Shown here: positions 3,772 through 32,720 of the stretch, piece by piece | Layout: each line of letters opens with the position of its first letter | Numbering within the stretch: the stretch's first letter is position 1 | Sequence record: PV435126.1 | Direction: 5' to 3' (one strand) | DNA length: 64,000 bases | Source: Escherichia phage EPFV3-03/2025 | The notes under the pieces: model-generated | The model's input: the letters and a program-made list of their open reading frames with translations, nothing else | Told to the model about the DNA's origin: nothing | Databases searched by the model: none | Translations under genes and position numbers: made by a program

Positions 3772-3797
3772 AAAGAAAAGGACGCCACAGAGCGTCC
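3772..3797 (-). terminator. rho-independent terminator (minus strand)
   Basis: ggacgc/gcgtcc hairpin with T-run on the minus strand, just downstream of the gene ending at 3823. Confidence 0.5.
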
Positions 3798-3822
3798 TAG
3801 GTGCCTTAAATTTGATATTTTG

Positions 3823-4134
3823 CTATACCCATGAGGGCTTGTCTAGGTTGGAGTAGCTGAAGGGGGTCAAAAGGTGACTGTCAAAATCTTTCAAACTGTC
3901 CAAGTCTTTTTCCTCGTCCTGACACCATCTGTGCCTGCATTTATTGTTGTAGTGCATGGAATGCATAGCGTTCTGCAACTTAACAGGTACAAGTGATTCA
4001 GGAGTAGATAGAATTGTTGGGTATGCCAGGACTATCTCAAACAATGGAAACACATCGAAACTGAAGTCTATTTCTGCTGAGGTTGCTGGCATATAGGAGT
4101 ATTTAGCTGTCGTTGTAGACATAATCCACCTCAC
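3823..4134 (-). CDS. hypothetical protein
   Basis: 103-aa ORF, abuts the next gene. Confidence 0.5.
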   Translation of the reverse strand: MRWIMSTTTAKYSYMPATSAEIDFSFDVFPLFEIVLAYPTILSTPESLVPVKLQNAMHSMHYNNKCRHRWCQDEEKDLDSLKDFDSHLLTPFSYSNLDKPSWV

Positions 4135-4457
4135 ACAGGCTTGATAATACCTTCACCGAATAACTCTTCATATTTAATCTTATCAGGATCCCACTCCTGG
4201 ATAATTTCGAAGACAATATCCAGCCCAGGGATAATCACTTCTCCGGTATCAAGTCTGGCAAGAACAAAACCGGAAGGTTGAATGGTTTCCCAGTTGCGAC
4301 GATTAGAATAGATAACTTCGAAAATATCGCCAACCGCAATCTGTTGATCAAGGTGTTCAAGATTCTCTTTCATATAAACGCAGCGTATTTTCCGTGCAGG
4401 CCACAGGCCCCCTGCATCACGTTTATTTAGCTCTTTTACAGTAATCGGCATTAGCAT
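4131..4457 (-). CDS. hypothetical protein
   Basis: 108-aa ORF. Confidence 0.55.
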   Translation of the reverse strand: MLMPITVKELNKRDAGGLWPARKIRCVYMKENLEHLDQQIAVGDIFEVIYSNRRNWETIQPSGFVLARLDTGEVIIPGLDIVFEIIQEWDPDKIKYEELFGEGIIKPV

Positions 4458-4480
4458 TTCTGATCTTCTCCATAGATAGT

Positions 4481-4503
4481 AAAAAGAGGGGCCAAGACCC
4501 CTC
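4481..4503 (-). terminator. rho-independent terminator (minus strand)
   Basis: gagggg/cccctc hairpin with T5 run on the minus strand, downstream of the gene ending at 4511. Confidence 0.6.
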
Positions 4504-4510
4504 TTCGTTG

Positions 4511-4816
4511 TTATTCTGCAGAGCGTTTGAACAGAATGTCTGCTTCAGACATGTGCTCAACCTCTTCTTCGATTTTAGCTCGACGTTTTTCAGCTTCGTA
4601 GCGGATATCGAATTCGGTAGCCACCAATGACTTGATAAACTTAGGAGAATACAGGTGATCCTGTTTCTCGACAAGAATAATATCCTTGATAGCGTCTTTC
4701 AGATCTTTAATCTGAAGCTGAAGTTCCACCAGCTCTTCAATTGTTTTACGGAGGCGATCACGCTCTGCAGTGTCAGAAGGCAGAGAGGTGAACAGTTCAA
4801 CTTTAGATTTAGCCAT
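4511..4816 (-). CDS. hypothetical coiled-coil protein
   Basis: 101-aa ORF rich in E/K/L heptad-like sequence. Confidence 0.55.
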   Translation of the reverse strand: MAKSKVELFTSLPSDTAERDRLRKTIEELVELQLQIKDLKDAIKDIILVEKQDHLYSPKFIKSLVATEFDIRYEAEKRRAKIEEEVEHMSEADILFKRSAE

Positions 4817-4844
4817 AGTAAGAGTCTCCTTATATTGTTTTAAA

Positions 4845-5096
4845 TTAACGTTCTACAAAAATACCATTCAGTTCGATAACCAGGAATTTCTGATCTTCAC
4901 TATCGTCACGTGCTAGCACCTCACAGACGTAACGGTCATCTCCGTCATCATCACAGTCAAATACAAGGCTGAGGACTTTATCATGATAAATCTTCGACAC
5001 TACTGCCTCGTAAGTATTGCCGATTGTGAATCCAAGATAATCCCCGATGCATTTGACAACAACATGGTCGCCAGCATTTAAGTCAATCTTCGTCAT
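4845..5096 (-). CDS. hypothetical small acidic protein
   Basis: ORF 4845..5162 trimmed to the internal start MTKIDL, which has an aaggag RBS. Confidence 0.55.
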   Translation of the reverse strand: MTKIDLNAGDHVVVKCIGDYLGFTIGNTYEAVVSKIYHDKVLSLVFDCDDDGDDRYVCEVLARDDSEDQKFLVIELNGIFVER

Positions 5097-5251
5097 TACT
5101 GTGCTCCTTGGGTGATAATATGGTATGTAAAACTTTAACCAGAGATGTGAATAACGCCCCAAAACACACAGATAGCGCTAAAACGGATAAGGCCATCATT
5201 AAAGCTTCAGTAAAATCAGTCATTCCTCACCTCTTGTTAGTAACTATACTA

Positions 5252-5515
5252 TCATTTATCTTCGCCGTCAAGAACTTTTTTAAATATCTCAGGAATATCT
5301 CCTGTTCTTAGATAGCTCATGACCTCCCAAGGTTTCCACTTGAACTTCTTGCACAGTAAGGCAGCCGAGATCGTCTCGTTGCGAAAAGAAAGGATATTAA
5401 TATCCCACTCTGAGAACCCCAATTTCCGAAGAGTGGCTATAGAAATCCTCACAGCAACCCAACAAGAGAGGCACGCAACAAACGCCACTGCCACAACCCA
5501 CATCAGGATGTTCAT
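5252..5515 (-). CDS. hypothetical membrane protein
   Basis: 87-aa ORF with N-terminal hydrophobic segment WVVAVAFVACLSCWVAV. Confidence 0.45.
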   Translation of the reverse strand: MNILMWVVAVAFVACLSCWVAVRISIATLRKLGFSEWDINILSFRNETISAALLCKKFKWKPWEVMSYLRTGDIPEIFKKVLDGEDK

Positions 5516-5604
5516 ACAGCCCCCTTAATGAAATACAAGGCATAGTGTTAAGGTTGCTACCCAGCAAATAATTAACAGTGCCGTTGCAACCTTGGCAAGA
5601 TTTA

Positions 5605-5892
5605 TCATAGTGTCTCTAAAATTTCATACCCTTCGGGTCGGAAAACAAGCCACTCAGGTGCTCCATTTGGTCGATACGCTTTATACAGAACAACCTGATC
5701 TCGGCACATGCACATGGCTACATAGTTTTCATCAACACCTGCCTCCTGCATTGCATCTTCTTCTCCGGCAACAGCCTTGCTTACAACTTCCTTGGTAGGC
5801 AGGTGGGCGATCAGCTCGTCACCATCGTTAATTCCAAAATGACTGAGTTCTCCATTGGTATCTTTAATCTTGATCTTAACCAAATCTTTCAT
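5605..5892 (-). CDS. hypothetical small acidic protein
   Basis: 95-aa ORF starting MKDLVKIKIK; in tandem array. Confidence 0.55.
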   Translation of the reverse strand: MKDLVKIKIKDTNGELSHFGINDGDELIAHLPTKEVVSKAVAGEEDAMQEAGVDENYVAMCMCRDQVVLYKAYRPNGAPEWLVFRPEGYEILETL

Positions 5893-6221
5893 TAGTCTTC
5901 CTCCAGGTTCAAAGGTCCTAAGATTTCATATGCTAGATTAGAAGTTACCAGAGGGTCTTCTGCATCTTTAGTATTATACCATCCGTGAATAACCAGAGTC
6001 CCACTTTGCTTCATGTCTAACTGGAACTGTTCTGCCGTTTCCTCATCCATCTCCAAGATCTCCATGAGGTATTTGATGTTAGGAAGGTATGCAGCTGTTA
6101 CAGTCCCCTCTACCAGGCCTTCAGGCCAACCTACATCCGGATGACAAGTAGGGACCAGAGAGGTCAGCTTGATAGTGTATGCTTTTTCTGCACGAGCCTT
6201 CAGTAACGGATCAATTTTCAT
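5892..6221 (-). CDS. hypothetical small acidic protein
   Basis: 109-aa ORF; start overlaps previous stop. Confidence 0.55.
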   Translation of the reverse strand: MKIDPLLKARAEKAYTIKLTSLVPTCHPDVGWPEGLVEGTVTAAYLPNIKYLMEILEMDEETAEQFQLDMKQSGTLVIHGWYNTKDAEDPLVTSNLAYEILGPLNLEED

Positions 6222-6571
6222 TATTCTTCCTCCTCTTCGGTGCCTGCTTCCAGTAGTAAGTTAAGAACATCTTCAGCAGAAGGTTCGTAGAACTCTTGGC
6301 CTTCGTTGTCGATGATGCGATAGTCATCACCCCGAATAATCAGAGGATCGTCATCAAAACCTTCAAGACCTTTAACAACGACAACACGGTCGATTGCCAT
6401 CATTGTAAGAACTTTATCGACATCTTCCTCTGCTACACCATACTGCAGCAGAATGTCTTTGGTAGGAGGGACAGCATCCACCACAACACCGTTACCAAAA
6501 CCTTCCGGAAGTTTAGCTAAAATATCTTCCGGAACCACATTCATATCAAAACCTGTGATCTCTACTTTCAT
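6221..6571 (-). CDS. hypothetical small acidic protein (MK-V/I-E/K family)
   Basis: 116-aa ORF starting MKVEITG with poly-E C-terminus. Confidence 0.55.
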   Translation of the reverse strand: MKVEITGFDMNVVPEDILAKLPEGFGNGVVVDAVPPTKDILLQYGVAEEDVDKVLTMMAIDRVVVVKGLEGFDDDPLIIRGDDYRIIDNEGQEFYEPSAEDVLNLLLEAGTEEEEE

Positions 6572-6832
6572 TTACAGAACCTCTTCGTCAACTACTTCAT
6601 AAAAATGGCTTGGGATTGCAATGGCGTTCTCGCCTTCACCTAAGAACACTGTCCCACTAACGATTAACATTAGAAGAACGTCTGCGATACCTTCCTCGGG
6701 GACGTTGCCAAAACCTTTAATCAGCTCGTAGGTTGGAAGATTTACCTCTAAGATGTCACCATCTTTGGAGCGGAAATCAACACCATCCTGAATCTCTGCC
6801 GTTTCAAGGTTTTTCAATTTAATCTTCATCAA
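6572..6832 (-). CDS. hypothetical small acidic protein (MK-V/I-K family)
   Basis: 86-aa ORF starting MMKIKL, ending YEVVDEEVL; TTGACA-N17-AATAAT promoter-like motif upstream on the minus strand. Confidence 0.55.
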   Translation of the reverse strand: MMKIKLKNLETAEIQDGVDFRSKDGDILEVNLPTYELIKGFGNVPEEGIADVLLMLIVSGTVFLGEGENAIAIPSHFYEVVDEEVL

Positions 6833-6908
6833 TCAGTCTCCTGTCTTGTTAAGATGAAGGTATTATTGCACACAGGGTTGGTGTTGTCAACACCTGTGTG
6901 GAATAAAA

Positions 6909-7304
6909 TTACTGAAACAGTGCAGATAAATTACCTTCTGGTGGGAACTTATCTGCCAAGAACGGAGTCAGAACAGTGGCCTTCTGAAGATCTGGAGTCC
7001 ACTCGTTGTTCAGAACATCCCAGTAGTACGCAATGTTGCTGTGTGGGTGCCGCATTACGAACTTTTTCCCTTCGTAGTCAGTTGAAACCTCTACAGAAGA
7101 AATAACAACAGAATCTTCAAGAGTTTCTTCATAGAAAGATCCACCCTCGAATTTCCAACGAGATGCAAGAGCTCCTGCCTTAAACGCTGCAGATAACGGA
7201 CTGTCGGCAAGAACATACATTTCTTGCACTCTGTCGCTACGATCTTTGCTTCTTACGTTGTATACAGTATCTGAGCTATACTCAACACGGTATAGACTTA
7301 CCAT
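6909..7304 (-). CDS. hypothetical protein, paralog of 9107..9505
   Basis: 131 aa; shares HPxS..YW..WTP motif with the ORF at 9107..9505. Confidence 0.6.
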   Translation of the reverse strand: MVSLYRVEYSSDTVYNVRSKDRSDRVQEMYVLADSPLSAAFKAGALASRWKFEGGSFYEETLEDSVVISSVEVSTDYEGKKFVMRHPHSNIAYYWDVLNNEWTPDLQKATVLTPFLADKFPPEGNLSALFQ

Positions 7305-7636
7305 TACCGCACCTCCTCAATAACTTCCACATCTGAACCTACCACAAATGCAAAAGGGCAGGTTTCATGAAAGACATCCGGATCGCCGCCAAGCTTGCTA
7401 ACTATTTCTCCACCACTAATAAACACAAGCTCACCGATATTCATCAGATTGCTGAAATAGTATCCATAATGATTAAAGAATGCAGCAGGGTCAGGCAGAC
7501 TAGTAGCCTCAAGCTCTACATCGGTTGAGATTACTTTCTTATCATACCCTCTGGCCTTTTGAGATGCAAGATCTGCAGAATCCTCAGGCGACCGGAGATG
7601 CACAGGAATTGTTTCACCAATAAAGCGTACTTTCAT
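7304..7636 (-). CDS. hypothetical small acidic protein
   Basis: ORF 7304..7663 trimmed to internal start MKVRFIG to avoid overlap; ends VEVIEEVR. Confidence 0.5.
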   Translation of the reverse strand: MKVRFIGETIPVHLRSPEDSADLASQKARGYDKKVISTDVELEATSLPDPAAFFNHYGYYFSNLMNIGELVFISGGEIVSKLGGDPDVFHETCPFAFVVGSDVEVIEEVR

Positions 7637-7640
7637 ATTC

Positions 7641-7904
7641 TCACCCAACAACCATAGCTTCAAAAGGGGTCATAAACGAATAAACAGCATTATCATCTGC
7701 TTCAGGAAATGCCCCCAAAGACTTCATGTCTGAGCCCTTGACAAATACAAGGTTCTGATCAAAAGCTTCTTGTGGATCAATCCGATACATATTTCGTAGG
7801 GTATCACTTACCTCATCATCAAGAGGCGAGTATGCTGTGCACGTTTTTCCAATCAAGCTTTGAGAATCAGGGTATCCACCTGAAGTTTTAAAATAAACAA
7901 TCAT
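7641..7904 (-). CDS. hypothetical small acidic protein
   Basis: 87-aa ORF. Confidence 0.5.
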   Translation of the reverse strand: MIVYFKTSGGYPDSQSLIGKTCTAYSPLDDEVSDTLRNMYRIDPQEAFDQNLVFVKGSDMKSLGAFPEADDNAVYSFMTPFEAMVVG

Positions 7905-7992
7905 ACAGTATCACCTCTGGTAAGAGATGGGGATTCCTTTCCCACAAATAATTACAAACCTTTCTTGTCGAGGAAGTATGGCTAACCCAAGA

Positions 7993-8262
7993 TTACTCCT
8001 CTACAACCTCATACACATCCGGAGTTACAATCAACTCTTCTCCGTTGCCTGGAGCAACAAACACTACCAAACCTTCCGGTGTGTGCTTTTTAGCCATCTC
8101 GATGACATCTTCTCGCAGAGCTGGCTCCATCAAATCAAAACCTTCACCCAGAGCATCACGAACCACCTTCATGTAGTCCACTGGTTGTGCTTCAACGATC
8201 ATGCCTTCAACCAGTCCGCAGTTTTTGTCTGCCAGCTCAGTTTTGAATAATTTAATTTTCAT
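7993..8262 (-). CDS. hypothetical small acidic protein (MK-V/I-K family)
   Basis: 89 aa starting MKIKLF; GMIVEA motif shared with 13415..13648; ends YEVVEE. Confidence 0.55.
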   Translation of the reverse strand: MKIKLFKTELADKNCGLVEGMIVEAQPVDYMKVVRDALGEGFDLMEPALREDVIEMAKKHTPEGLVVFVAPGNGEELIVTPDVYEVVEE

Positions 8263-8399
8263 TTAGAGGTCTCCTCAATTATTTGATATTAATAGCCGTA
8301 ACCTAACACATTAACTACAACTGCGATTGCAAACATAATTTCAAAGCATGCAATCTCTACATTTGGGACTAATTTCTTAATCATACCCATTGTAGCACC

Positions 8400-8717
8400 T
8401 CAATCCCAAAAGTCAATCTTTACTTTACCTTTTCCCTTACCTTTCTTTCCACCGCATTTAGCCAACTGGCGTGCTGCAACATCCACCATACGGTCAGTTG
8501 CCTCGTAAGCATCGCTACCTTTAGCTTTGGCGATAACTTCTTTCCCAGAATTGTCAAAAATAAAAGCCATAACTTCCTGGTGATCATTTTCAACTTTTAC
8601 ACTCACACGTGCATAGTTGGCAGATGGGTGCAAACGCTCCAGTTTGGACATTTTGTGGGAAATGAAAGACACCATACCTTCAGTGATCTCTACGTTGCCA
8701 GTGATTTCAATCTGCAT
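8400..8717 (-). CDS. ribosome hibernation promoting factor / RaiA-like protein
   Basis: MQIEITGNVEITEGM...KLERL...VKVE...RQLAK resembles the HPF/YfiA family N-terminus MQLNITGxNVEITxA..KLE and C-terminal RQL(N/T)K, as recalled from the E. coli proteins; TTGACA-N17-TATCAT promoter upstream. Confidence 0.7.
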   Translation of the reverse strand: MQIEITGNVEITEGMVSFISHKMSKLERLHPSANYARVSVKVENDHQEVMAFIFDNSGKEVIAKAKGSDAYEATDRMVDVAARQLAKCGGKKGKGKGKVKIDFWD

Positions 8718-8798
8718 AACGTGCTCCTTTTAAAGAAGAGGGAACCAAACCCTCTTTGAAAATAATGATACTAAAGATCAAATGTTGTGTCAACAGTT

Positions 8799-9089
8799 TT
8801 ACAGCTTGTCGTCGATAGTTTTTAAAATATCTACTGCAAGATCTGCCATTTTACGAACATACTCTGCAAACTCAACAGGATCCTTGATCAATGAGTTCAC
8901 AGGGTCGTACCCTAGAGCGTTCAAAATGGCTGCAGCATCTACAACCTTCTCATCATTTGCGAAGATCTCTCCGTCAAACTTGTAGGTCCATTTTGAGTCA
9001 ATCTTGGCAGGGAAGGATTGGTCAACGCTTGTTACACCATCCTTTTTAAACGCTCCGGGGTTATCAGTGTCCAGAACTAAATCCATCAT
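8799..9089 (-). CDS. hypothetical protein
   Basis: 96-aa ORF. Confidence 0.5.
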   Translation of the reverse strand: MMDLVLDTDNPGAFKKDGVTSVDQSFPAKIDSKWTYKFDGEIFANDEKVVDAAAILNALGYDPVNSLIKDPVEFAEYVRKMADLAVDILKTIDDKL

Positions 9090-9106
9090 GTTAGTACCTC
9101 ACTGTT

Positions 9107-9505
9107 TCAGTTTAGCTTTTCTTCAACAACCCCATAACTTGGGGCAGAGTCAAGAGCTTTCTGGTTTAAAAGTGGCGTAGCAGAATCTGCAAACGGTGTC
9201 CAAGTTTTTGTTCTGGCATTCCAGTAATGCTTCACTCTAGAATCTGGATGCACTATAACAAAAACTTTTTCACTTGTCAACACATTAATTTCTTCCACAC
9301 CCTTGCTGATAATTTCTCCGTCATATCCTCCGGTCTGGTATCCTTCGTACCAGGTTCTTGCATAGGCATAGCCAGCCTGCCAGCATGCAGCCTCCTCCGA
9401 GGTGGAGACTACGTAGAAGTCTTTCTCAAATTCTGGGATACGCCCTTGCTTTACGCTCCAAGCTCCGCGAATTTTCATTGTAACTTTGAACAGTTTGTTT
9501 TTCAC
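9107..9505 (-). CDS. hypothetical protein, paralog of 6909..7304
   Basis: 132 aa; VIVHPDSRVKHYWNARTKTWTP matches VMRHPHSNIAYYWDVLNNEWTP in 6909..7304. Confidence 0.6.
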   Translation of the reverse strand: MKNKLFKVTMKIRGAWSVKQGRIPEFEKDFYVVSTSEEAACWQAGYAYARTWYEGYQTGGYDGEIISKGVEEINVLTSEKVFVIVHPDSRVKHYWNARTKTWTPFADSATPLLNQKALDSAPSYGVVEEKLN

Positions 9506-9517
9506 AACGGTTACCTA

Positions 9518-9772
9518 TTACAGCTCTACAATATCTGCATCTGACCCTGCCCCAAAGGCATAATAGGACTCTTTCCCGAAATAATATTCAGGTGCACCAG
9601 CGGCGATCAGGTCTGATCCTAAGATAAACACCACGTTGTGGCCTACATAACTATGATGTTGCCGCACAGGATCATCCCACGGTAACCCTTCAAAGTATAC
9701 CGCAGGAACGACCTTTCCCTTCAGGAAGGATTGTCCCAAGTAGACGTTAGAATCAAGAATTTTAACCTTCAT
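9518..9772 (-). CDS. hypothetical small acidic protein (MKVK-L family)
   Basis: 84 aa; MKVKILDSNVYLGQ..GKVV..DLIAAGA..IVEL, paralog of 9762..9989 and 13415..13648. Confidence 0.6.
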   Translation of the reverse strand: MKVKILDSNVYLGQSFLKGKVVPAVYFEGLPWDDPVRQHHSYVGHNVVFILGSDLIAAGAPEYYFGKESYYAFGAGSDADIVEL

Positions 9773-9989
9773 GATCGTCCTCCACTATCTCTACATCCTC
9801 ACCTAGGGCAAAGTTGTAGGTCCACTGACTGTCAAAGCAGTCCTGAGATGCACCAGCGGCAATAAGATCTGCTCCTTTTATTTTTAAAAGGTCAGGGTAA
9901 TCTTCGTTAGGGACAGCAGTAAACACTTTTCCTACTAAAGGCTCCTGACCAATATAGAAGCTTGAATCTAAAACTTTAACTTTCATCAA
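9762..9989 (-). CDS. hypothetical small acidic protein (MKVK-L family)
   Basis: 75 aa; MMKVKVLDSSFYIGQ..GKVF..DLIAAGA..EIVED; overlaps neighbour by about 10 nt. Confidence 0.6.
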   Translation of the reverse strand: MMKVKVLDSSFYIGQEPLVGKVFTAVPNEDYPDLLKIKGADLIAAGASQDCFDSQWTYNFALGEDVEIVEDDHEG

Positions 9990-10273
9990 CGGTCTCCATC
10001 AGGTGGTTGTGGGACGTAAACACTGTTACGAATATCGTCCGCAGTATAGTAATAAGTGTCTCCAACCCTATCTCTGGCTGCAATGTACTCTGCTATACCA
10101 ATAAGTGCCATTGATTTGGTGGCGTATCTTCCCAACTCGTTAGCTCCCCAGTAGAATTTAGACCAATAGGGAATAAGACCGAACAAATATACCTTTTGAC
10201 GAACTTCCCAGTAAGTGCCTTTCCCGACAAGTTTAAACTCGACTTCACCACTGTTAATCTTTTTCATTATCAA
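9986..10273 (-). CDS. hypothetical protein
   Basis: 95-aa ORF, start overlaps previous stop. Confidence 0.5.
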   Translation of the reverse strand: MIMKKINSGEVEFKLVGKGTYWEVRQKVYLFGLIPYWSKFYWGANELGRYATKSMALIGIAEYIAARDRVGDTYYYTADDIRNSVYVPQPPDGDR

Positions 10274-10566
10274 TCTCCCTCCACCGTGGTCGGATTGTCA
10301 GTAAGAAATTGAGCATTAGCTGGAGGCACACCTGACATTTTCCACACAACCATAAGTTTGTAACCCGGAACCCTATTAAGTGCAGATCGAGTAGAGTTTG
10401 TGCACGTATACTTTCGCTTTCCAAACCCGTTCTCCATCATAATCCAGTACCCAGTATCTTTGTCACCAGGTATCGGTAGACCACCTTCATCAACCCACTG
10501 AATGGACCACGGCACGATGGCTACAGCTTTATATTTAAACTTTTTAAACCACTCAAAAAGTTTCAT
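10270..10566 (-). CDS. hypothetical protein
   Basis: 98-aa ORF. Confidence 0.5.
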   Translation of the reverse strand: MKLFEWFKKFKYKAVAIVPWSIQWVDEGGLPIPGDKDTGYWIMMENGFGKRKYTCTNSTRSALNRVPGYKLMVVWKMSGVPPANAQFLTDNPTTVEGD

Positions 10567-10661
10567 AATTCAGCCCCGCATAGACATAATCACTATAAAC
10601 AGGCAAATAATAAATCCGAATGCCACGCCACCCATAAACGTTAATATTGATGCAATCATAG

Positions 10662-10847
10662 TCAATCAGCCTCGCTTGGCAACTCTTCTACCTTAACATG
10701 CCGAAAAGTGTTACCGTAATGGTTGATCCATGACATCAGCTCGCTTTCTTGCTCTTCCTCTGGGATGAACTCTCGAATGCTGACAAGTTTTAAGAAAACC
10801 CAATCACAATCTGCACCCATTCTACCAGACAGGCAATAGTGCTTCAT
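10662..10847 (-). CDS. hypothetical protein
   Basis: 61-aa ORF, weak. Confidence 0.35.
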   Translation of the reverse strand: MKHYCLSGRMGADCDWVFLKLVSIREFIPEEEQESELMSWINHYGNTFRHVKVEELPSEAD

Positions 10848-10865
10848 AAAACCCTCCCGCCTGGT

Positions 10866-11060
10866 TTAGAATATTGCTTCTTCCATTGCACCTGAGAGCA
10901 ACAAAGAGGTGATCTGGCTAACATTCATCTCAGACTCTACTTCCTCCCCTTTGAAAGGTTCGCGGCAGAATAGGACTGTTTCAGGACTTTTACTTCGAAC
11001 AATATAATACAAATCATTCAATGTGTTGTAGTAATAAGTGTTAAAACGTAAGTTTTTCAT
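10866..11060 (-). CDS. hypothetical protein
   Basis: 64-aa ORF. Confidence 0.4.
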   Translation of the reverse strand: MKNLRFNTYYYNTLNDLYYIVRSKSPETVLFCREPFKGEEVESEMNVSQITSLLLSGAMEEAIF

Positions 11061-11344
11061 TTTCTAGTCCCCTTCTTAGATTTTTGTGTAGAAACGCTTT
11101 CTGCAATACGAGACAAACGTTCTTCTGAAGCCTTGCCTATTCCAGGTTTTTTGAGTGGATTATCTTTATGACCACAATCCAATTGGATATTGGATACCTC
11201 TCCAACCTTGTAAGTCAATTCTAGCAAAAGGTTGTCGTCCTTGTCAAATGTTCTTACGATAAATTTTTTATCGTTCTCCTGAACTTCATATCTGGTACCT
11301 GCAGTATACAGCATGGTGCCATCAGCATAGGATATCCAGATCAT
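11057..11344 (-). CDS. hypothetical protein
   Basis: 95-aa ORF with basic C-terminus. Confidence 0.5.
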   Translation of the reverse strand: MIWISYADGTMLYTAGTRYEVQENDKKFIVRTFDKDDNLLLELTYKVGEVSNIQLDCGHKDNPLKKPGIGKASEERLSRIAESVSTQKSKKGTRK

Positions 11345-11706
11345 TGAGCCTCCTTCTGCTGCAACAGCATTAACTCTTTGTTAGAGATCTTTACTGCTGT
11401 TTTTATTGTTCCGTCTTTACGGAACCACGACCAGAACTCTACAGTGTCCCCACTATCAAGCAAAGCATACCCGTGGTAGAAGTCTTTGTCCTTAGACAGT
11501 TTCTCATCTATGTCTGCATCGACACATTCGTGATCCATAGCATTTTGCCTGAATGCATCGGTTATGCCAATGCACGCCTTGCTCTCAAGACTGGTATATC
11601 CGGTATCTTTTAATTCGGTTTCCCAAACCCAGTATCCTGCAAAAGCTACGACAGTTACCAGCCCCATAGCAGCTACCAACTTTAATACCGATTTAATCTT
11701 TGCCAT
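11341..11706 (-). CDS. hypothetical membrane-anchored protein
   Basis: 121 aa with N-terminal hydrophobic segment LVAAMGLVTVVAFAGYWVW. Confidence 0.5.
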   Translation of the reverse strand: MAKIKSVLKLVAAMGLVTVVAFAGYWVWETELKDTGYTSLESKACIGITDAFRQNAMDHECVDADIDEKLSKDKDFYHGYALLDSGDTVEFWSWFRKDGTIKTAVKISNKELMLLQQKEAQ

Positions 11707-11766
11707 TCTCTCTACCTCTTTCTTAACTTATTTAACTATGGCACATCCTTTGTGCCTCATTGCACA

Positions 11767-12228
11767 CTACTTAAACAACAATTCAAAATAGTGAAAAATT
11801 AACAGAAGTTGAATTACGCCCAGCACAACGGCAAGTATGTTAATCTTAGAATCAAAAAACTTCTTAACTTTTACTCTAAAAGGTTCCTTAATGTCCTTTA
11901 CGATCCTATCTATAGATGACCTCATATCTCTGATTACCATCCTGAACATTAAAGACGGATGATCCTTCTCTGTAACGGAATCGAAAACATACTCTCTTTG
12001 ATCATAAGGGCCGCCAGCTCTGCGTATTAACCTCTCCACAGAGACCTCGAACGTCACACCTGTAACGTAATCATCTATGACAAGTAGTGACGGGTCTTTA
12101 CCATCAAGAGGCATCAAAGTTATCTTTCCAGATTTTGTTAAAATTTCTCCTTTTTCAAGTAAGGTGTACCAATGCTCTCTGCCAAGGCTGTTGAGGCACG
12201 TTTTTACATATTTAACAAACATCGTCAC
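11767..12228 (-). CDS. hypothetical protein with C-terminal hydrophobic segment
   Basis: 153-aa ORF; C-terminal ILAVVLGVIQLLLIF. Confidence 0.5.
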   Translation of the reverse strand: MTMFVKYVKTCLNSLGREHWYTLLEKGEILTKSGKITLMPLDGKDPSLLVIDDYVTGVTFEVSVERLIRRAGGPYDQREYVFDSVTEKDHPSLMFRMVIRDMRSSIDRIVKDIKEPFRVKVKKFFDSKINILAVVLGVIQLLLIFHYFELLFK

Positions 12229-12428
12229 CCCTCATCGCACGTCTGATATAACCACTCTATGAAATCTTGATACCATTCGCCCTCTGAGCGCTCCGTAGGC
12301 CAATAATCTTCACCCTCTCGTGCATTAAAATCTGAGTATTCAACTTTCCACTCCTTTACCAGCTCGTGGAGAAGGTTTTCAGCCTGCTCTAAAGATTTAT
12401 TTTTTACCATTGCTGTCTCCTTTTTCAA
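12225..12428 (-). CDS. hypothetical protein
   Basis: 67-aa ORF. Confidence 0.45.
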   Translation of the reverse strand: MKKETAMVKNKSLEQAENLLHELVKEWKVEYSDFNAREGEDYWPTERSEGEWYQDFIEWLYQTCDEG

Positions 12429-12629
12429 GATAGTTATACATCAGAACTGCACCACCTAAGATGGCTACCAGTAACAATATCCCAGATAGCATCTCAATAA
12501 ACATGGCTTGAAACACTGAAAGGTCTCCCTAAATTAACGCACCATTTTAAATACATGCTCTTTTCCCATAAAGGTGCCTGGCTAAGATCTGCGTAGAACG
12601 CAATCTCTTTAAGAACAGTATAGATAGTT

Positions 12630-12857
12630 TTAGGTGCGGTCTCCATCCCTACTCTCCTTCCGGATATTCTTGTAGTAATCGACTAGGCACATTATTACGA
12701 TGAAGATAACAACAGGCCAAAAAGGTGCAGCAGTGATGATGGTGATAAAATCATCAAACTTCACCCTTCGTCTGGACACGATGCATATACCTGTCAAGAA
12801 TACCGCTGTTATAACGGATATTACCAAGTAACCTATTAGCACAACATTTATACTCAT
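12630..12857 (-). CDS. hypothetical small membrane protein (two hydrophobic segments)
   Basis: 75 aa; two predicted TM stretches then a charged C-terminus, a holin-like architecture but not adjacent to lysis genes. Confidence 0.45.
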   Translation of the reverse strand: MSINVVLIGYLVISVITAVFLTGICIVSRRRVKFDDFITIITAAPFWPVVIFIVIMCLVDYYKNIRKESRDGDRT

Positions 12858-12887
12858 TAGCCCTCCCTTTGTAGGTTAAATTTTATA

Positions 12888-13418
12888 CTACAGATGGTTG
12901 CTTATGGTGTCAAGAAAATTATCCCGTTCTTTCTTGGAGTTTTCACGGGTGTAGCTGAAAAACATATCTAGAATAACCTTATTGATATATTCCAGCTCCT
13001 CTGTGTTCAGGTACTTAGCAGGATCTACAATGACATCCCAAGTCTCATACAGACCGCACTCATGATAACCCCAACGCTGCTCAATTGTCAAGCTGAGCGG
13101 CAAATCTTTACCGTCACAAACAACCTTCCATCTACAAATGCTGGTATCTGGGCACACCTGTGTACGGTATACCTGTACAAAATCCAATCTGAATTTGAGG
13201 TACTCGTCATACAATTTAAGCACAAAGCTCTCGATTTGTGGAGACACTTTTGCAGCAAACTGTGCGTATTTATACTTGCACTGGATGATCTTTCTGCGTT
13301 TTGCAGTTAAATTTTTTGCAGCCAGTTGTTCTTCAGTGTATCTCCACCGATCAACAAACGCAACAGGGTCTTTGTCCCCATAAAGGTCTTCCCAGTTAAT
13401 CAGAAGCATACCTGTCAC
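12888..13418 (-). CDS. hypothetical protein
   Basis: 176-aa ORF. Confidence 0.55.
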   Translation of the reverse strand: MTGMLLINWEDLYGDKDPVAFVDRWRYTEEQLAAKNLTAKRRKIIQCKYKYAQFAAKVSPQIESFVLKLYDEYLKFRLDFVQVYRTQVCPDTSICRWKVVCDGKDLPLSLTIEQRWGYHECGLYETWDVIVDPAKYLNTEELEYINKVILDMFFSYTRENSKKERDNFLDTISNHL

Positions 13419-13648
13419 TCCTCCACAACTTCAAGACCTTTACCGCCTCGCTCTGGCAGATTACTTAAAGACAGGTAATACGTATAGTCAGGAGAGATCC
13501 TGCCAGACTCTGCACCTGCAGATAGTAAATCTTTTCCCTTAACCATGACAACATTATCGTTTGCAGATAGTCGTTTTGCTTCCACAATTTTACCAACGCA
13601 GTCAACCAAGGAAGGGTACCCTAAATCTGTAAGAAATTTAACTTTCAT
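13415..13648 (-). CDS. hypothetical small acidic protein (MKVK-L family)
   Basis: 77 aa; MKVKFLTDLGY..GKIVEA..DLLSAGA..LEVVEE. Confidence 0.6.
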   Translation of the reverse strand: MKVKFLTDLGYPSLVDCVGKIVEAKRLSANDNVVMVKGKDLLSAGAESGRISPDYTYYLSLSNLPERGGKGLEVVEE

Positions 13649-13687
13649 GCTACCTCCTACTTCTACCGTCCCTGGTAAGATAAATTA

Positions 13688-14086
13688 TTACTGAACAAAG
13701 CGCGGAGCTGGGAAGGATAACTCTTCTAAAGAGAAGATTTCATTCCCCACAATCCATGTTGCAGGATCATCTGGGTTGACTGGATAGATAATCATCACCT
13801 CGTCAGTGTTACATACCCGCTTTTTACCTGTGGAGTCATCAGCAACCAGCATGCGCGGTTCTTCAGAAATGCACAAGTATCCTCCTCGGCCCACTGTTCC
13901 TTCCACAGGATCTTGTCCTTTGATCACGATGATTATCTTCTCTCCTGAGGCGATATTACCTTGCACACTCACCGTTTGACCAACCTTGGATGTGCCAATC
14001 TTAGTGACTTCGAACATTACATCCCGAATTACTGTTGCATAATCGCCAGACACTTTCTTACCTTCTTTAGTGATCTCAATCTTCAT
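13688..14086 (-). CDS. hypothetical protein
   Basis: 132-aa ORF starting MKIEITKEG. Confidence 0.55.
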   Translation of the reverse strand: MKIEITKEGKKVSGDYATVIRDVMFEVTKIGTSKVGQTVSVQGNIASGEKIIIVIKGQDPVEGTVGRGGYLCISEEPRMLVADDSTGKKRVCNTDEVMIIYPVNPDDPATWIVGNEIFSLEELSFPAPRFVQ

Positions 14087-14359: not shown

Positions 14360-14644
14360 CTACCAGGTTACTGTCAAGTAGGCAACCGTGTTATTTTTCT
14401 CCGGAGAGATGCCAACAACATCCACCTGCAGACCTCCTGCCCTCAAATCCCCAACGATGTGTGGGAAGTAGTCTGAGAGGTGCGATGGGAGATTTATCGA
14501 AAATCCGCATCCCAGAAAGCCTGCTAACGCTTTATTTTGTATCTCCCCTACAATCGCATCATAAATGGAGTTAAGCTCGTCAGGGAGCGTTACAGGGCGT
14601 TTTAGCGCTAACTGGTGCAACTTGTCCTTAGCACTCATTTTCAT
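14360..14644 (-). CDS. hypothetical protein
   Basis: ORF 14360..14713 trimmed to internal start MKMSAKDK, which abuts the upstream stop. Confidence 0.45.
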   Translation of the reverse strand: MKMSAKDKLHQLALKRPVTLPDELNSIYDAIVGEIQNKALAGFLGCGFSINLPSHLSDYFPHIVGDLRAGGLQVDVVGISPEKNNTVAYLTVTW

Positions 14645-15174
14645 TTCAGGTCTACCTCTGGAGGTGCCAACCACATAAATGGCGGCAGGTCTAAACGGTT
14701 CTTCTTGTCCCACACAAAATATGCATATGCTTGCCCGTCAGTTCTGCCATTTGATTGGAATGATGGACGCTTAGATATTGTGATCACAGTGGTAGGTGCA
14801 TTATCAAGCCACCATTCAAATCTGGCTTTGCTTTCCAGAAAATTAAGACGCAAAAGCATAATAACTACGTCAGCATCTTTCAACGCCTTGTCTACAAACT
14901 CACGAGCCAGGCTGTACGGTGGGTTGGTGATAATACAGTCAACATGGTTGTATTCTGTATTCAGATAGTCAACACCTTCTTGGATTTCTCCCCATGCAGA
15001 TCCTAACGGCATACGGGAGTAGAACACACCTGAGGCGCTATTTCTGCAAGGCTCTAGGTAGGTCCAGTCTTCTGGGAACGGAATAAGGTCATACAGCCCT
15101 TCTGCACACCACTCCGGTGTCACATACTCGTCGTAAGCGTTACGTTGTTCATCAGGTTTTCTAGCACAAGTCAT
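14641..15174 (-). CDS. DNA methyltransferase (amino-methyltransferase, NPPY motif)
   Basis: 177 aa containing IITNPPYS, the motif IV of N6-adenine/N4-cytosine methyltransferases. Confidence 0.7.
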   Translation of the reverse strand: MTCARKPDEQRNAYDEYVTPEWCAEGLYDLIPFPEDWTYLEPCRNSASGVFYSRMPLGSAWGEIQEGVDYLNTEYNHVDCIITNPPYSLAREFVDKALKDADVVIMLLRLNFLESKARFEWWLDNAPTTVITISKRPSFQSNGRTDGQAYAYFVWDKKNRLDLPPFMWLAPPEVDLK

Positions 15175-15225: not shown

Positions 15226-16275
15226 TTAAGCTTCTTCGACAATTCCTGCACCCAGGATTTTTTCATTGAGCTCTTTTGCTGTTTTAATAATATTGTCCAC
15301 CAGACGCTTGCGGGTCTTATCTTTAACCTGAACTTCTTCACCTCCGTTCAGGGTGGTTTTCAATTGGGACAAAATGTCCTGAAGCTCTACCACAGAGAAT
15401 CGCTGCAGATCTTCCGAGGTAATCTCACCAAGTGCAATCTTAACGGTCTCACCGCTCTCCATCTGTAGATTCAGGAACACAGTGTGAACATCACCTTTCA
15501 CACCATTTGCTTTTGCAGACTCAACAGCATGAACCAGCTCGTCCAGAGATGTGCATTGGTGAATCTCTGGCAGGCCTGCTTCACCTAGCACACCTTCTTC
15601 ATCACTTTTTGCCAAAAGCTTTTTCGGTTTCTGTCCATTCTGAATGCGCTGAATGTTTTCATCGTCCAGAATGATAGCACCAGTTCGAGATGCCAGCTCT
15701 TCTCCATCTAACCACACTTCGCCACCAGCTGTGATGGATGCGATTTCATCTTCTGTTAACACCCCACCGTAGTATTTTTCAATCAGGCGTTCAAAACGTT
15801 TCTTCCAGTAGTTGATCTGGGTATTCATGTTCACACCGTTACCATAGGTGCCACCTTGATAGTAGTGGAACATAAATTCTGTGTCCGGAGCTACAGTTCG
15901 TTCTTTGCAACCCAGCCATAAGATTGTTCCTGCCGAGCAGCACATCCCTTCAGCGTGTACAACAACGCTTGCCTGAGACTCGCGGAATGCCTGCAAATAC
16001 GCCATAGCAATGTGAACGCAACCACCGGGGCTGTTAATGATTACACGGATACTTTCTTCTGGCTGTGCCATACGAATTGTTTGCAAACGGGACATATGAT
16101 CCTGCAAATCTTCAAGATCGTCAATATAAAGAACGTGGTCAACAACAGGTGTTGGGTAGCTGTATGTTTCCATAATACCACCCGGCATACCAAACATTTT
16201 GTTACTCATAGGTTCGAAACCGTTCTGTTTTTCTTTCATGCCGTGTACCATGGTGCTGCGAGGTGTTAAATTCAT
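15226..16275 (-). CDS. ClpP-like serine protease with C-terminal extension
   Basis: 349 aa; INSPGGCVHIAMAYLQ...HAEGMCCSAGTILW resembles the ClpP/S14 core; about 150 extra C-terminal residues. Confidence 0.7.
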   Translation of the reverse strand: MNLTPRSTMVHGMKEKQNGFEPMSNKMFGMPGGIMETYSYPTPVVDHVLYIDDLEDLQDHMSRLQTIRMAQPEESIRVIINSPGGCVHIAMAYLQAFRESQASVVVHAEGMCCSAGTILWLGCKERTVAPDTEFMFHYYQGGTYGNGVNMNTQINYWKKRFERLIEKYYGGVLTEDEIASITAGGEVWLDGEELASRTGAIILDDENIQRIQNGQKPKKLLAKSDEEGVLGEAGLPEIHQCTSLDELVHAVESAKANGVKGDVHTVFLNLQMESGETVKIALGEITSEDLQRFSVVELQDILSQLKTTLNGGEEVQVKDKTRKRLVDNIIKTAKELNEKILGAGIVEEA

Positions 16276-31807: not shown

Positions 31808-32388
31808 TAAGCATCTGCGAGATCGGCCTTACCTTGTACCAAATTGATCCCATCTAGGAACCCAGGTTCAGATACTTCACAGGCCTTAACCATCAACTTT
31901 TTATCCATCGTAACAGGCTTCTTCACAGTATGCTCTTTACCCGTCCTTTTGTCAAGCTTTTTCTTCTCCTCAAAAGCAAGTTCTTCAGGAAGATGACTAC
32001 GAGCAAACTTTTTGGCAGTTGTTGGTGTCACTGTGTGGACCTTAAACAGGCCGTCATTTTCACAATCAGCTAAGGCATCCCAAAGCATAACTTCAAGACC
32101 GTAAAACAACCCAGCCAGTTCACGTGTGGCATCCCCGCGTGATCCAAAGGAAAGCCCTTCCATAACTACGGTGTCAACGCCGTGCGTGTGGATATAATAT
32201 CTGACCTGTTTGCAGATCCAGTCAATACGCTCAGCAGCTGTTGCAAAAGAAACCGTCCCTGGTTTCTTCTCTTTTGCAGATGAGCTTTGAGTTCGTAACA
32301 CAACCTTATGAACAGGCTTTCCATCGTCCCATACAACGCAAGCTGTGTGTGTCAACGACTGGTCTATGGATAATAGACGCTCTCTCAT
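31759..32388 (-). CDS. RuvC-like Holliday junction resolvase
   Basis: 209 aa; LSIDQSLTHTA, VVMEGLSFGSRGD and KADLADAYWIG resemble RNase H-fold resolvase catalytic motifs. Confidence 0.55.
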   Translation of the reverse strand: MRERLLSIDQSLTHTACVVWDDGKPVHKVVLRTQSSSAKEKKPGTVSFATAAERIDWICKQVRYYIHTHGVDTVVMEGLSFGSRGDATRELAGLFYGLEVMLWDALADCENDGLFKVHTVTPTTAKKFARSHLPEELAFEEKKKLDKRTGKEHTVKKPVTMDKKLMVKACEVSEPGFLDGINLVQGKADLADAYWIGRAHLEGLSQSVK

Positions 32389-32720
32389 GCTTCCTCATCC
32401 TCCTCTCCTTCATCAGGAGCATAAGCCTTATCTTTGAACAAGACGAGAGAGCAAAGCTTAACATCTGTTTCCACACTGGTGAACATGCATAACCGCTCGC
32501 CCTCAATCAGCTCACAATCCTCTTTTAAAACAGCAGACCATACACGGTCATCTGCGTAATCATCAGTGTACAGGATGTATGAAATGGTGTCATCTTCATA
32601 CAACCGCCACATACCTGTGGCAACAACGAATGTGTTTTTTGTTTTAAGTGTCCCTGTTGTATGATCATCCTCAAAAACAGCTTCCATAATTGCGTTATCT
32701 ACAGCATTTTTAGTCATCAA
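32385..32720 (-). CDS. hypothetical protein
   Basis: 111-aa ORF. Confidence 0.45.
   Translation of the reverse strand: MMTKNAVDNAIMEAVFEDDHTTGTLKTKNTFVVATGMWRLYEDDTISYILYTDDYADDRVWSAVLKEDCELIEGERLCMFTSVETDVKLCSLVLFKDKAYAPDEGEEDEEA

Follow-up and report, generated by a model that had tools for sequence, protein, structure and literature searches.

The window analysed here is a stretch of 64,000 nucleotides of DNA from Escherichia phage EPFV3-03/2025 (sequence record PV435126.1). Between positions 4800 and 14100 it carries a run of small genes on the minus strand, ten of which encode small acidic paralogs that fall, by sequence comparison, into two families of five, termed G1 and G2. Over its full length this region shares 94-95% identity with over 100 rV5-like E. 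coli myoviruses (genus Vequintavirus), the closest relative being phage EmilHeitz/Bas49 (∼94% identical). In the related records it comprises ∼33 small genes on one strand, nearly all annotated as 'hypothetical protein', the exception being a ribosome hibernation factor homologue. The genes of interest correspond to open reading frames (ORFs) 127, 140, 141 and 146-154 by rV5 numbering.

Layout of the region

All ten members lie on the minus strand and are confined to 5.6-13.6 kb of the window, nine of them within 5600-9990, and the G1 and G2 genes are interleaved within 4.4 kb. The original prediction, made from the DNA letters without database searches, had described one family of small paralogous ORFs in a tandem array spanning 4845-14086 and had named seven members. 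All seven are real paralogs, but they belong to two families rather than one, and three further members (7641-7904, 5605-5892 and 5892-6221) had not been listed. The clustered expansion of small proteins stands; the array as delimited does not, as ∼20 unrelated genes lie among the members and the ORFs at its two ends, 4845-5162 and 13688-14086, are not members. Four candidates, namely these two end ORFs together with 4131-4457 and 8799-9089, were rejected at a best profile-comparison P of 0.02-0.07, within the range of controls, and the two end ORFs were also unmatched in the family searches with hidden Markov models (HMMs) and phmmer. A census found no further G1 or G2 member in the rest of the window, in a divergent relative (the metagenome scaffold L014, described below) or elsewhere in the rV5 genome, in which the ten-member set is the largest paralog family.

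The ten proteins are stand-alone polypeptides of 74-116 amino acids (aa). All are acidic, as had been predicted, with isoelectric points (pI) of 4.05-5.39 and net charges of -1 to -22, as against a mean pI of 6.5 for the products of neighbouring genes. The family had also been put forward as an unrecognised one, and this is borne out: neither G1 nor G2 has a match in Pfam, whether single proteins or every member of the alignments are searched, neither has a sequence-related entry among solved structures, and no paper describing the family was found in the literature. The Pfam and solved-structure searches gave no homology to any named family, anti-defence families included; the PADLOC library of defence models was not searched.

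Family G1

G1 is a five-gene family with robust sequence support, with HMM expectation values (E) of about 1e-5 to 1e-41. Its core consists of 13415-13648 (77 aa, rV5 ORF 127), 9762-9986 (74 aa, ORF 140) and 9518-9772 (84 aa, ORF 141); members are referred to below by their first coordinate. The all-against-all alignment suggested with the original prediction, run here with BLASTP on the minus-strand ORFs, brings out this core clearly: 9518-9772 matches 9762-9986 at E 6e-15, and 13415-13648 matches 9762-9986 at E 3e-7. The same three proteins are already grouped in phrog_5009, a family without assigned function, which takes in 9518 at E 1e-31, 13415 at E 8.5e-36 and 9762 at E 1.1e-38 (E 1e-31 to 1e-38 overall). 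Of the remaining members, 7641 matches part of the phrog_5009 profile only (E 1.4e-4), and neither 7304 nor any G2 member tested matches it, so that phrog_5009 differs from the set described here in lacking a function, 7304 and all of G2.

The two outer members, 7641-7904 (87 aa, ORF 147) and 7304-7636 (110 aa, ORF 148), are found by an HMM built from the three core members, at E 3.6e-6 and 9e-5, respectively, and nothing else scores below E 1 among 594 ORFs from the window and two other loci. Pairwise comparison of orthogroup profiles agrees, with all 20 G1-G1 pairs at P < 0.01; in hhalign, 7641 scores P 6e-7 to 4e-4 against the three core orthogroups and 7304 scores P 8e-7 to 9e-3 against the rest of G1. 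Identity between copies over core columns is 19-51%. The motif scaffold proposed for the whole set can be retained in part: both families have the MK[VI]K start and an end of the [VI]VEE type, but the GK[VI]V..A and DL[LI][SA]AGA motifs belong to G1 only, in full in three members and in degenerate form in 7641 and 7304. In the G1 consensus Y11, G19, K20, G38, D40, G45 and Y57 are nearly invariant, even across distant phages, and a G-x-[DE]-L-I-x-A-G-A turn and helix is also kept.

Family G2

Family G2 comprises 7993-8262 (89 aa, rV5 ORF 146), 6572-6829 (85 aa, ORF 150), 6221-6571 (116 aa, ORF 151, with an acidic C-terminal extension and a net charge of -22), 5892-6221 (109 aa, ORF 152) and 5605-5892 (95 aa, split into ORFs 153 and 154 in the rV5 record). 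Sequence support for this grouping becomes clear only when the orthologues of a divergent relative are added. Within the window alone the similarity is marginal: 5605, 6221, 6572 and 7993 are mutual top matches at phmmer E 0.05-1.6, and leave-one-out HMMs score E 3e-4 to 0.1 and bring in 5892-6221. The relative is L014, a 128-kb metagenome scaffold with the same gene order. With its orthologues included in the G2 HMMs, each omitted orthogroup is the sole match, at E 1.3e-9 to 4.8e-3, and nothing else scores below 0.1. The leave-one-orthogroup-out values are 1.5e-5 and 2.9e-4 for 7993, 5.6e-6 and 1.7e-4 for 6572, 1.3e-9 and 3.2e-7 for 6221, 3.5e-6 and 5.7e-5 for 5892, and 5.7e-6 and 4.8e-3 for 5605. 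Taken by itself, the pair 5892-6572 is not significant (P 0.1). The PHROG database places every G2 member in a separate family, with 7304 and G2 spread over phrogs 13661, 11868, 12359, 12155, 12794 and 12457. G2 was found only in Vequintavirus-like contigs.

Orthologues of 7993-8262 carry the label 'sigma 54 modulation factor' in many GenBank records (MN850578 nomo_102 and PQ014731 among them). This label was rejected. No Pfam match, to Ribosomal_S30AE/HPF (PF02482) or to any other family, is obtained for 7993 at E <= 0.1 or for its orthologues at E <= 5, and the model of 7993 is a barrel plus helices, as opposed to the beta-alpha-beta-beta-beta-alpha fold of HPF. The label looks like a propagated annotation error. 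A second label, 'ATP-dependent protease La', given in some records, belongs to the HPF gene of the region and not to a family member.

A probable shared barrel scaffold

Structure prediction, likewise suggested as a check, was carried out with AlphaFold2 for one member of each family, and both models are five-stranded barrels. The model of 13415 has a predicted local distance difference test score (pLDDT) of 95.9, strands at residues 2-5, 21-27, 30-37, 56-60 and 72-76, and two short helices. The model of 7993 (pLDDT 91.6) has strands at 2-5, 22-27, 66-69, 76-79 and 84-88, and three helices within residues 30-60, between strands 2 and 3. The five strands follow in the same order in both models, and because of these strand and helix positions G2 looks like the G1 barrel with a three-helix subdomain inserted between strands 2 and 3. 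The length variation within G1 falls in the same loop: 13415 and 9762 represent the minimal scaffold, 9518 has an insertion of ∼14 residues, 7641 one of ∼21 and 7304 one of ∼50, and members differ chiefly in this insertion (0 to ∼50 residues).

All ten proteins most likely share one SH3-like five-stranded beta-barrel scaffold. The G1 model resembles the small barrels of this fold (SH3, KOW, the C-terminal domain of PhnA/YjdM, and OapB) in its five strands, in the length of its first loop and in the short helix that follows strand 3. Among solved structures it is matched best by the SH3 domains of Sho1 and Grb2, OapB, PhnA-like proteins and the KOW domains of Spt5. Among predicted viral structures (BFVD), Foldseek matches it, for example, to proteins of phage RB49 (Q76ZG7), Shigella phage Sf20 (A0A2K9VNT9) and Citrobacter phage Merlin with a probability of 0.96-1.00 and a query template modelling (TM) score of 0.63-0.67. 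These proteins are of similar size and likewise unannotated, but only 20-23% identical, and the exhaustive HMM search described below did not establish homology. Seven BFVD matches, all small uncharacterised enterophage proteins, are common to the G1 and G2 models; one of them, A0A514CYF5, has TM scores of 0.80/0.86 to the G1 model and 0.52/0.63 to the G2 model. For the 7993 model the best Foldseek match is a Vequintavirus protein of 95 aa, from phage ECP32 (E 3.9e-3); its length is that of the 5605 orthogroup, to which it may belong.

On balance it is somewhat more likely than not that G1 and G2 share a common ancestor. Family-level hhalign comparisons give P 0.016, 0.0044, 0.0025 and 0.0077, colinear over strands 1, 2, 3 and 5, and beat all 42 controls drawn from unrelated neighbouring orthogroups (best control P 0.022). 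At the level of single orthogroups the distribution of P for G1-G2 pairs is, as a whole, shifted lower than that of controls (Mann-Whitney p 4e-4). The competing account, that the families are unrelated neighbours produced by two independent five-gene expansions and that their likeness is convergent or compositional, is the less probable of the two but a serious one. HMM-to-sequence searches give no cross-detection between G1 and G2 (E 0.6-10), each G2 member has its own PHROG, and among the orthogroup pairs only 6% reach P < 0.05, compared with 7% of controls, with a median P of 0.2. SH3-like barrels are, moreover, very common, and a shared fold class is therefore weak evidence of common origin. 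Independent origins do not readily explain the colinear family profiles, the shifted distribution of cross-pair P, the position of the 9518, 7641 and 7304 insertions in the very loop that holds the G2 helical subdomain, the Foldseek matches common to both models or the interleaving of the genes within 4.4 kb.

Age and maintenance of the copies

The original prediction had read the divergence of the copies as rapid, under arms-race selection. The ratio of non-synonymous to synonymous differences per site (pN/pS, Nei-Gojobori) was calculated from the window and eight other Vequintavirus genomes, with 20 neighbouring genes as a comparison. Members have values of 0.04-0.24; the pooled values are 0.146 for G1 and 0.125 for G2, and 0.121 for the neighbours. 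Each paralog is under purifying selection. The stretch 5600-9990 is nearly complete in 116 of 120 records, with a nucleotide identity of 92-98%, and L014 has syntenic one-to-one orthologues of all ten members at 29-74% amino-acid identity. Members are on average 52% identical to their L014 counterparts and neighbours 62%, but the ranges of the two groups overlap. The one-to-one orthology places the expansion before the split between the window and L014, with each copy kept since; together, the purifying selection, the presence in 116 of 120 records and the synteny with L014 indicate that the duplications are old and the copies stably kept. The data argue against ongoing arms-race diversification and are silent on the distant past.

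The model behind such an interpretation is gene amplification in phage T4, where the amplified counter-defence gene is tifA, directed against toxIN (PMC9391042). There, as here, a virulent coliphage carries a small accessory gene in several copies. The T4 amplifications were reportedly recent, near-identical segmental copies selected in the laboratory. The copies in the window are unlike them, being 19-51% identical over core columns, older than the split from L014 and under purifying selection.

Growth of the family is inferred to have combined old duplications with one or more exchanges with temperate phages. Over core columns 13415 shares 51-54% identity with its homologues in E. coli lambdoid phages and prophages, as against 34-35% with the paralogs in its own genome, which points to such an exchange. 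Recombination between neighbouring copies does occur, as is evident from a recombinant protein (P0024, on contigs of up to 133 kb) that has the N-terminal half of 9762 and the C-terminal half of 9518, joined at the DLIAAGA motif. Another protein (P0087) combines an unrelated PF24132 N-terminus with the C-terminal half of a 5892 orthologue. Phage V18 (L013, NC_041937; 6705-7303) has truncated or frameshifted versions of 7304 and 7641, with called genes of 141 and 180 nt, either through pseudogenisation or through sequencing error.

A second pair of paralogs accompanies G1. The genes at 6909-7304 and 9107-9505 (minus strand, both phrog_7379), here called X, lie directly downstream of the G1 pairs 7641/7304 and 9762/9518, respectively. 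Their products match each other at BLASTP E 4e-10 and are unrelated to G1 and G2. The order G1-G1-X is thus present twice, which hints at duplication of a three-gene block. The G1 identity matrix pairs neither 7304 with 9518 nor 7641 with 9762, so that a block duplication is neither confirmed nor excluded. L014 has one clear X copy only, and the rV5 record notes similarity of the X pair to a protein of Listeria phage A118.

G1 in other phages

G1 is a rare phage family, with members in E. coli lambdoid prophages too. Among 1.84 billion representative proteins, an exhaustive HMM search found only 86 G1 clusters at E <= 1e-3, mostly stand-alone proteins of 63-90 aa, with several polypeptides made of two or three tandem copies. 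One cluster is fused to DUF3310, and no other informative fused domain was seen among the 86. Vequintavirus orthologues and copies in E. coli prophages made up nearly everything that word-indexed homologue searches found with one protein and the two family alignments. In the E. coli lambdoid phages and prophages the G1 gene belongs to a small-gene array of variable content, with the Q antiterminator on one side and the holin on the other. A degenerate DNA pattern for G-x-DLIAAGA found ∼30 true copies, nearly all from one lambdoid lineage, and no new contexts; most of the distant G1 homologues that were looked up for context lie on contigs of < 6 kb.

The window holds another small acidic protein, encoded at 4845-5096 (minus strand), that is weakly similar to the product of a window ORF at 32385-32720 (minus strand; E 0.01) and, at E 6e-4, to that of a gene of a lambdoid phage array (L003, 6292-6552). 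By these similarities it may represent a further small family common to both phage types.

A different setting is found in a podovirus-like contig from an unrelated phage (L015), in which positions 3787-4866 form a compact operon of two adjacent G1 genes followed by an HTH_3 gene. Upstream are repeated operator-like inverted repeats (CCATTTGTC/GACAAATGG), and a strong terminator with a 10-bp stem follows the HTH_3 gene. In acr-aca operons, anti-CRISPR genes are followed by a gene for a helix-turn-helix (HTH) autorepressor, a layout that the L015 operon shares through its two G1 genes, HTH_3 gene, upstream inverted repeats and terminator. This single instance is the sole contextual hint, by analogy, of an anti-defence role. 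The window differs, as no HTH gene adjoins the family there and the nearest candidate regulator is at 4511-4816 (phrog_639). To our knowledge, no anti-CRISPR activity has been attributed to G1 or G2 proteins.

Expression and dispensability

Matches to sigma-70-like promoters are enriched in the region (43, against 26.2 +/- 4.5 in shuffled sequences), and 12 of the 13 best lie on the minus, coding strand, which fits transcription by the host RNA polymerase. Three of these matches coincide with P144, P150 and P156, predicted in the rV5 paper and annotation. P144 is at 8765-8793 (minus strand; TTGACA, 17 nt, TATCAT), and P150, with an extended -10 element, is at 6862-6890 (minus strand), upstream of four adjacent G2 genes. 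Downstream of the small-gene array a terminator-like hairpin at 3779-3798 (minus strand), bidirectional with 3792-3804 (plus strand), is probably the end of the transcription unit. Between genes 163 and 164 the rV5 paper expected a bidirectional terminator but located none; it treats genes 82-163 as one transcription unit with nucleotide-metabolism genes and does not mention the paralogs. Virion mass spectrometry of rV5 reported gp133 as the sole protein from the region.

Phage EduardKellenberger/Bas59 (L008, MZ501061), isolated on E. coli K-12, has a natural deletion of ∼3.7 kb at 7496-7981 of its sequence. The missing segment corresponds to about 9.1-12.9 kb of the window and removes ∼14 genes, including 9518, 9762 and the X gene 9107-9505. 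At least those genes are therefore dispensable in the laboratory. The deletion leaves a shortened 'putative glycosidase' gene.

Possible functions

The explanation that best covers these findings as a whole, and that we hold tentatively, is that the ten small acidic proteins of the two families are diversified binders of host proteins built on a shared barrel scaffold. They would be non-virion accessory factors acting as a set of protein-binding modules, transcribed by the host sigma-70 RNA polymerase in the distal portion of the replication-side unit, which spans rV5 genes 82-163. The strand 2-3 loop, a counterpart of the n-Src loop of SH3 domains provided that the assumed topology mapping holds, and the acidic surfaces could provide every copy with a partner of its own. 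Host proteins (defence, nucleic-acid-binding or other basic proteins) would be the most probable partners, and may be blocked by stoichiometric binding. The only pointers to the putative roles in host takeover or anti-defence, or to different host targets, are partial dispensability, sharing with temperate phages and, by analogy, the L015 operon. The tandem-copy polypeptides, the lambdoid occurrence and the P0024 recombinant, as signs that G1 is mobile and prone to duplication, were counted in favour of such binders.

Several findings weigh against this explanation. The sequence link between G1 and G2 is weak. The nearly invariant G1 residues are easier to reconcile with a ligand shared by the copies, or with a structural role, than with a separate target for each, and nearly all genomes have the same fixed gene set, whereas anti-defence islands are typically hypervariable. 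The position of G1 between the Q antiterminator and the holin in lambdoid phages is usually transcribed late, not early. No partner, phenotype or expression timing is known for these proteins, and the literature yielded no transcriptome for any rV5-like phage, so that 'early' expression in the window is inference only. By keyword search, SH3 and barrel folds go unmentioned in the main text of a compendium that covers 268 anti-defence proteins.

A bolder version holds that Vequintaviruses carry the ten as a standing repertoire of SH3-like mini-binders, in which the variable loop or helical subdomain directs each protein to neutralise its own host factor or immune system, and that G1 is a mobile anti-defence module also carried by temperate E. 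coli phages and acr-aca-like operons, which would make it a new structural class of phage inhibitors. This version is doubtful.

Less likely again is that the proteins serve the phage's own programme, as adaptors, regulators or chaperones that would work with its replication or transcription proteins or with the ClpP-like protease encoded at 15226-16275. All ten genes are fixed in nearly all genomes under purifying selection like that of core neighbours, they belong to the same unit as DNA-metabolism genes, and they lie a few kb from the ClpP-like protease and a PhoH-like ATPase; SspB, an adaptor of the host Clp protease, has a small SH3/Sm-like barrel. Set against this, two members are absent from a viable phage, G1 also occurs in lambdoid prophages and in a podovirus-like contig without this ClpP neighbourhood, and no sequence or profile match to any adaptor family was obtained. 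Binding of a small molecule or nucleic acid by the conserved G1 site, as in Tad/Acb-like sponges of immune nucleotides or KOW/OapB-like RNA binders, is improbable, as strongly acidic proteins (pI 4.05-5.4) make poor nucleic-acid binders, the conserved G1 motif is absent from G2, and searches by sequence and fold gave no similarity to known sponge families.

The result is moderately interesting as a well-defined, uncharacterised protein set rather than as a new kind of system. Phages of the rV5 type are common candidates for therapy and biocontrol, and a third of the ∼30 consecutive 'hypothetical' genes of this region can now be placed in two families, probably of one fold, with confident models. 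The ten proteins make a compact target set for interaction and anti-defence screens, and a propagated mis-annotation on the 7993-8262 orthologues is corrected. If they are inhibitors, they would add an SH3-like class to the known phage counter-measures and would exemplify a repertoire that diversified long ago and has stayed stable, in contrast to an island of rapid turnover; should they not affect the host, they would be an ordinary lineage-specific expansion of small phage genes.

Neighbouring genes and other observations

In the middle of the array, 8400-8717 (minus strand) encodes the HPF/RaiA ribosome hibernation factor homologue (PF02482, E 1.8e-12), which has its own sigma-70-like promoter and is kept in L014. 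Just upstream of the array are a gene for the 349-aa ClpP-like protease (15226-16275, minus strand) and a small N6-adenine methyltransferase-like gene (14641-15174, minus strand), beyond which, in related genomes, the PhoH-like ATPase is found. Near the end of the transcription unit, 4511-4816 (minus strand) is the most conserved small gene of the region (pN/pS 0.01; 85% identical in L014) and matches phrog_639, 'transcriptional regulator'.

Eighteen GenBank records within MG065635-MG065690, labelled 'Campylobacter phage' with C. jejuni as host, are ∼94% identical to this region and are probably mislabelled or contaminated. Outside the window, rV5 ORFs 219 and 220 (L079, 21646-22224) form another adjacent pair of small paralogs, with 31% identity (E 9e-6).

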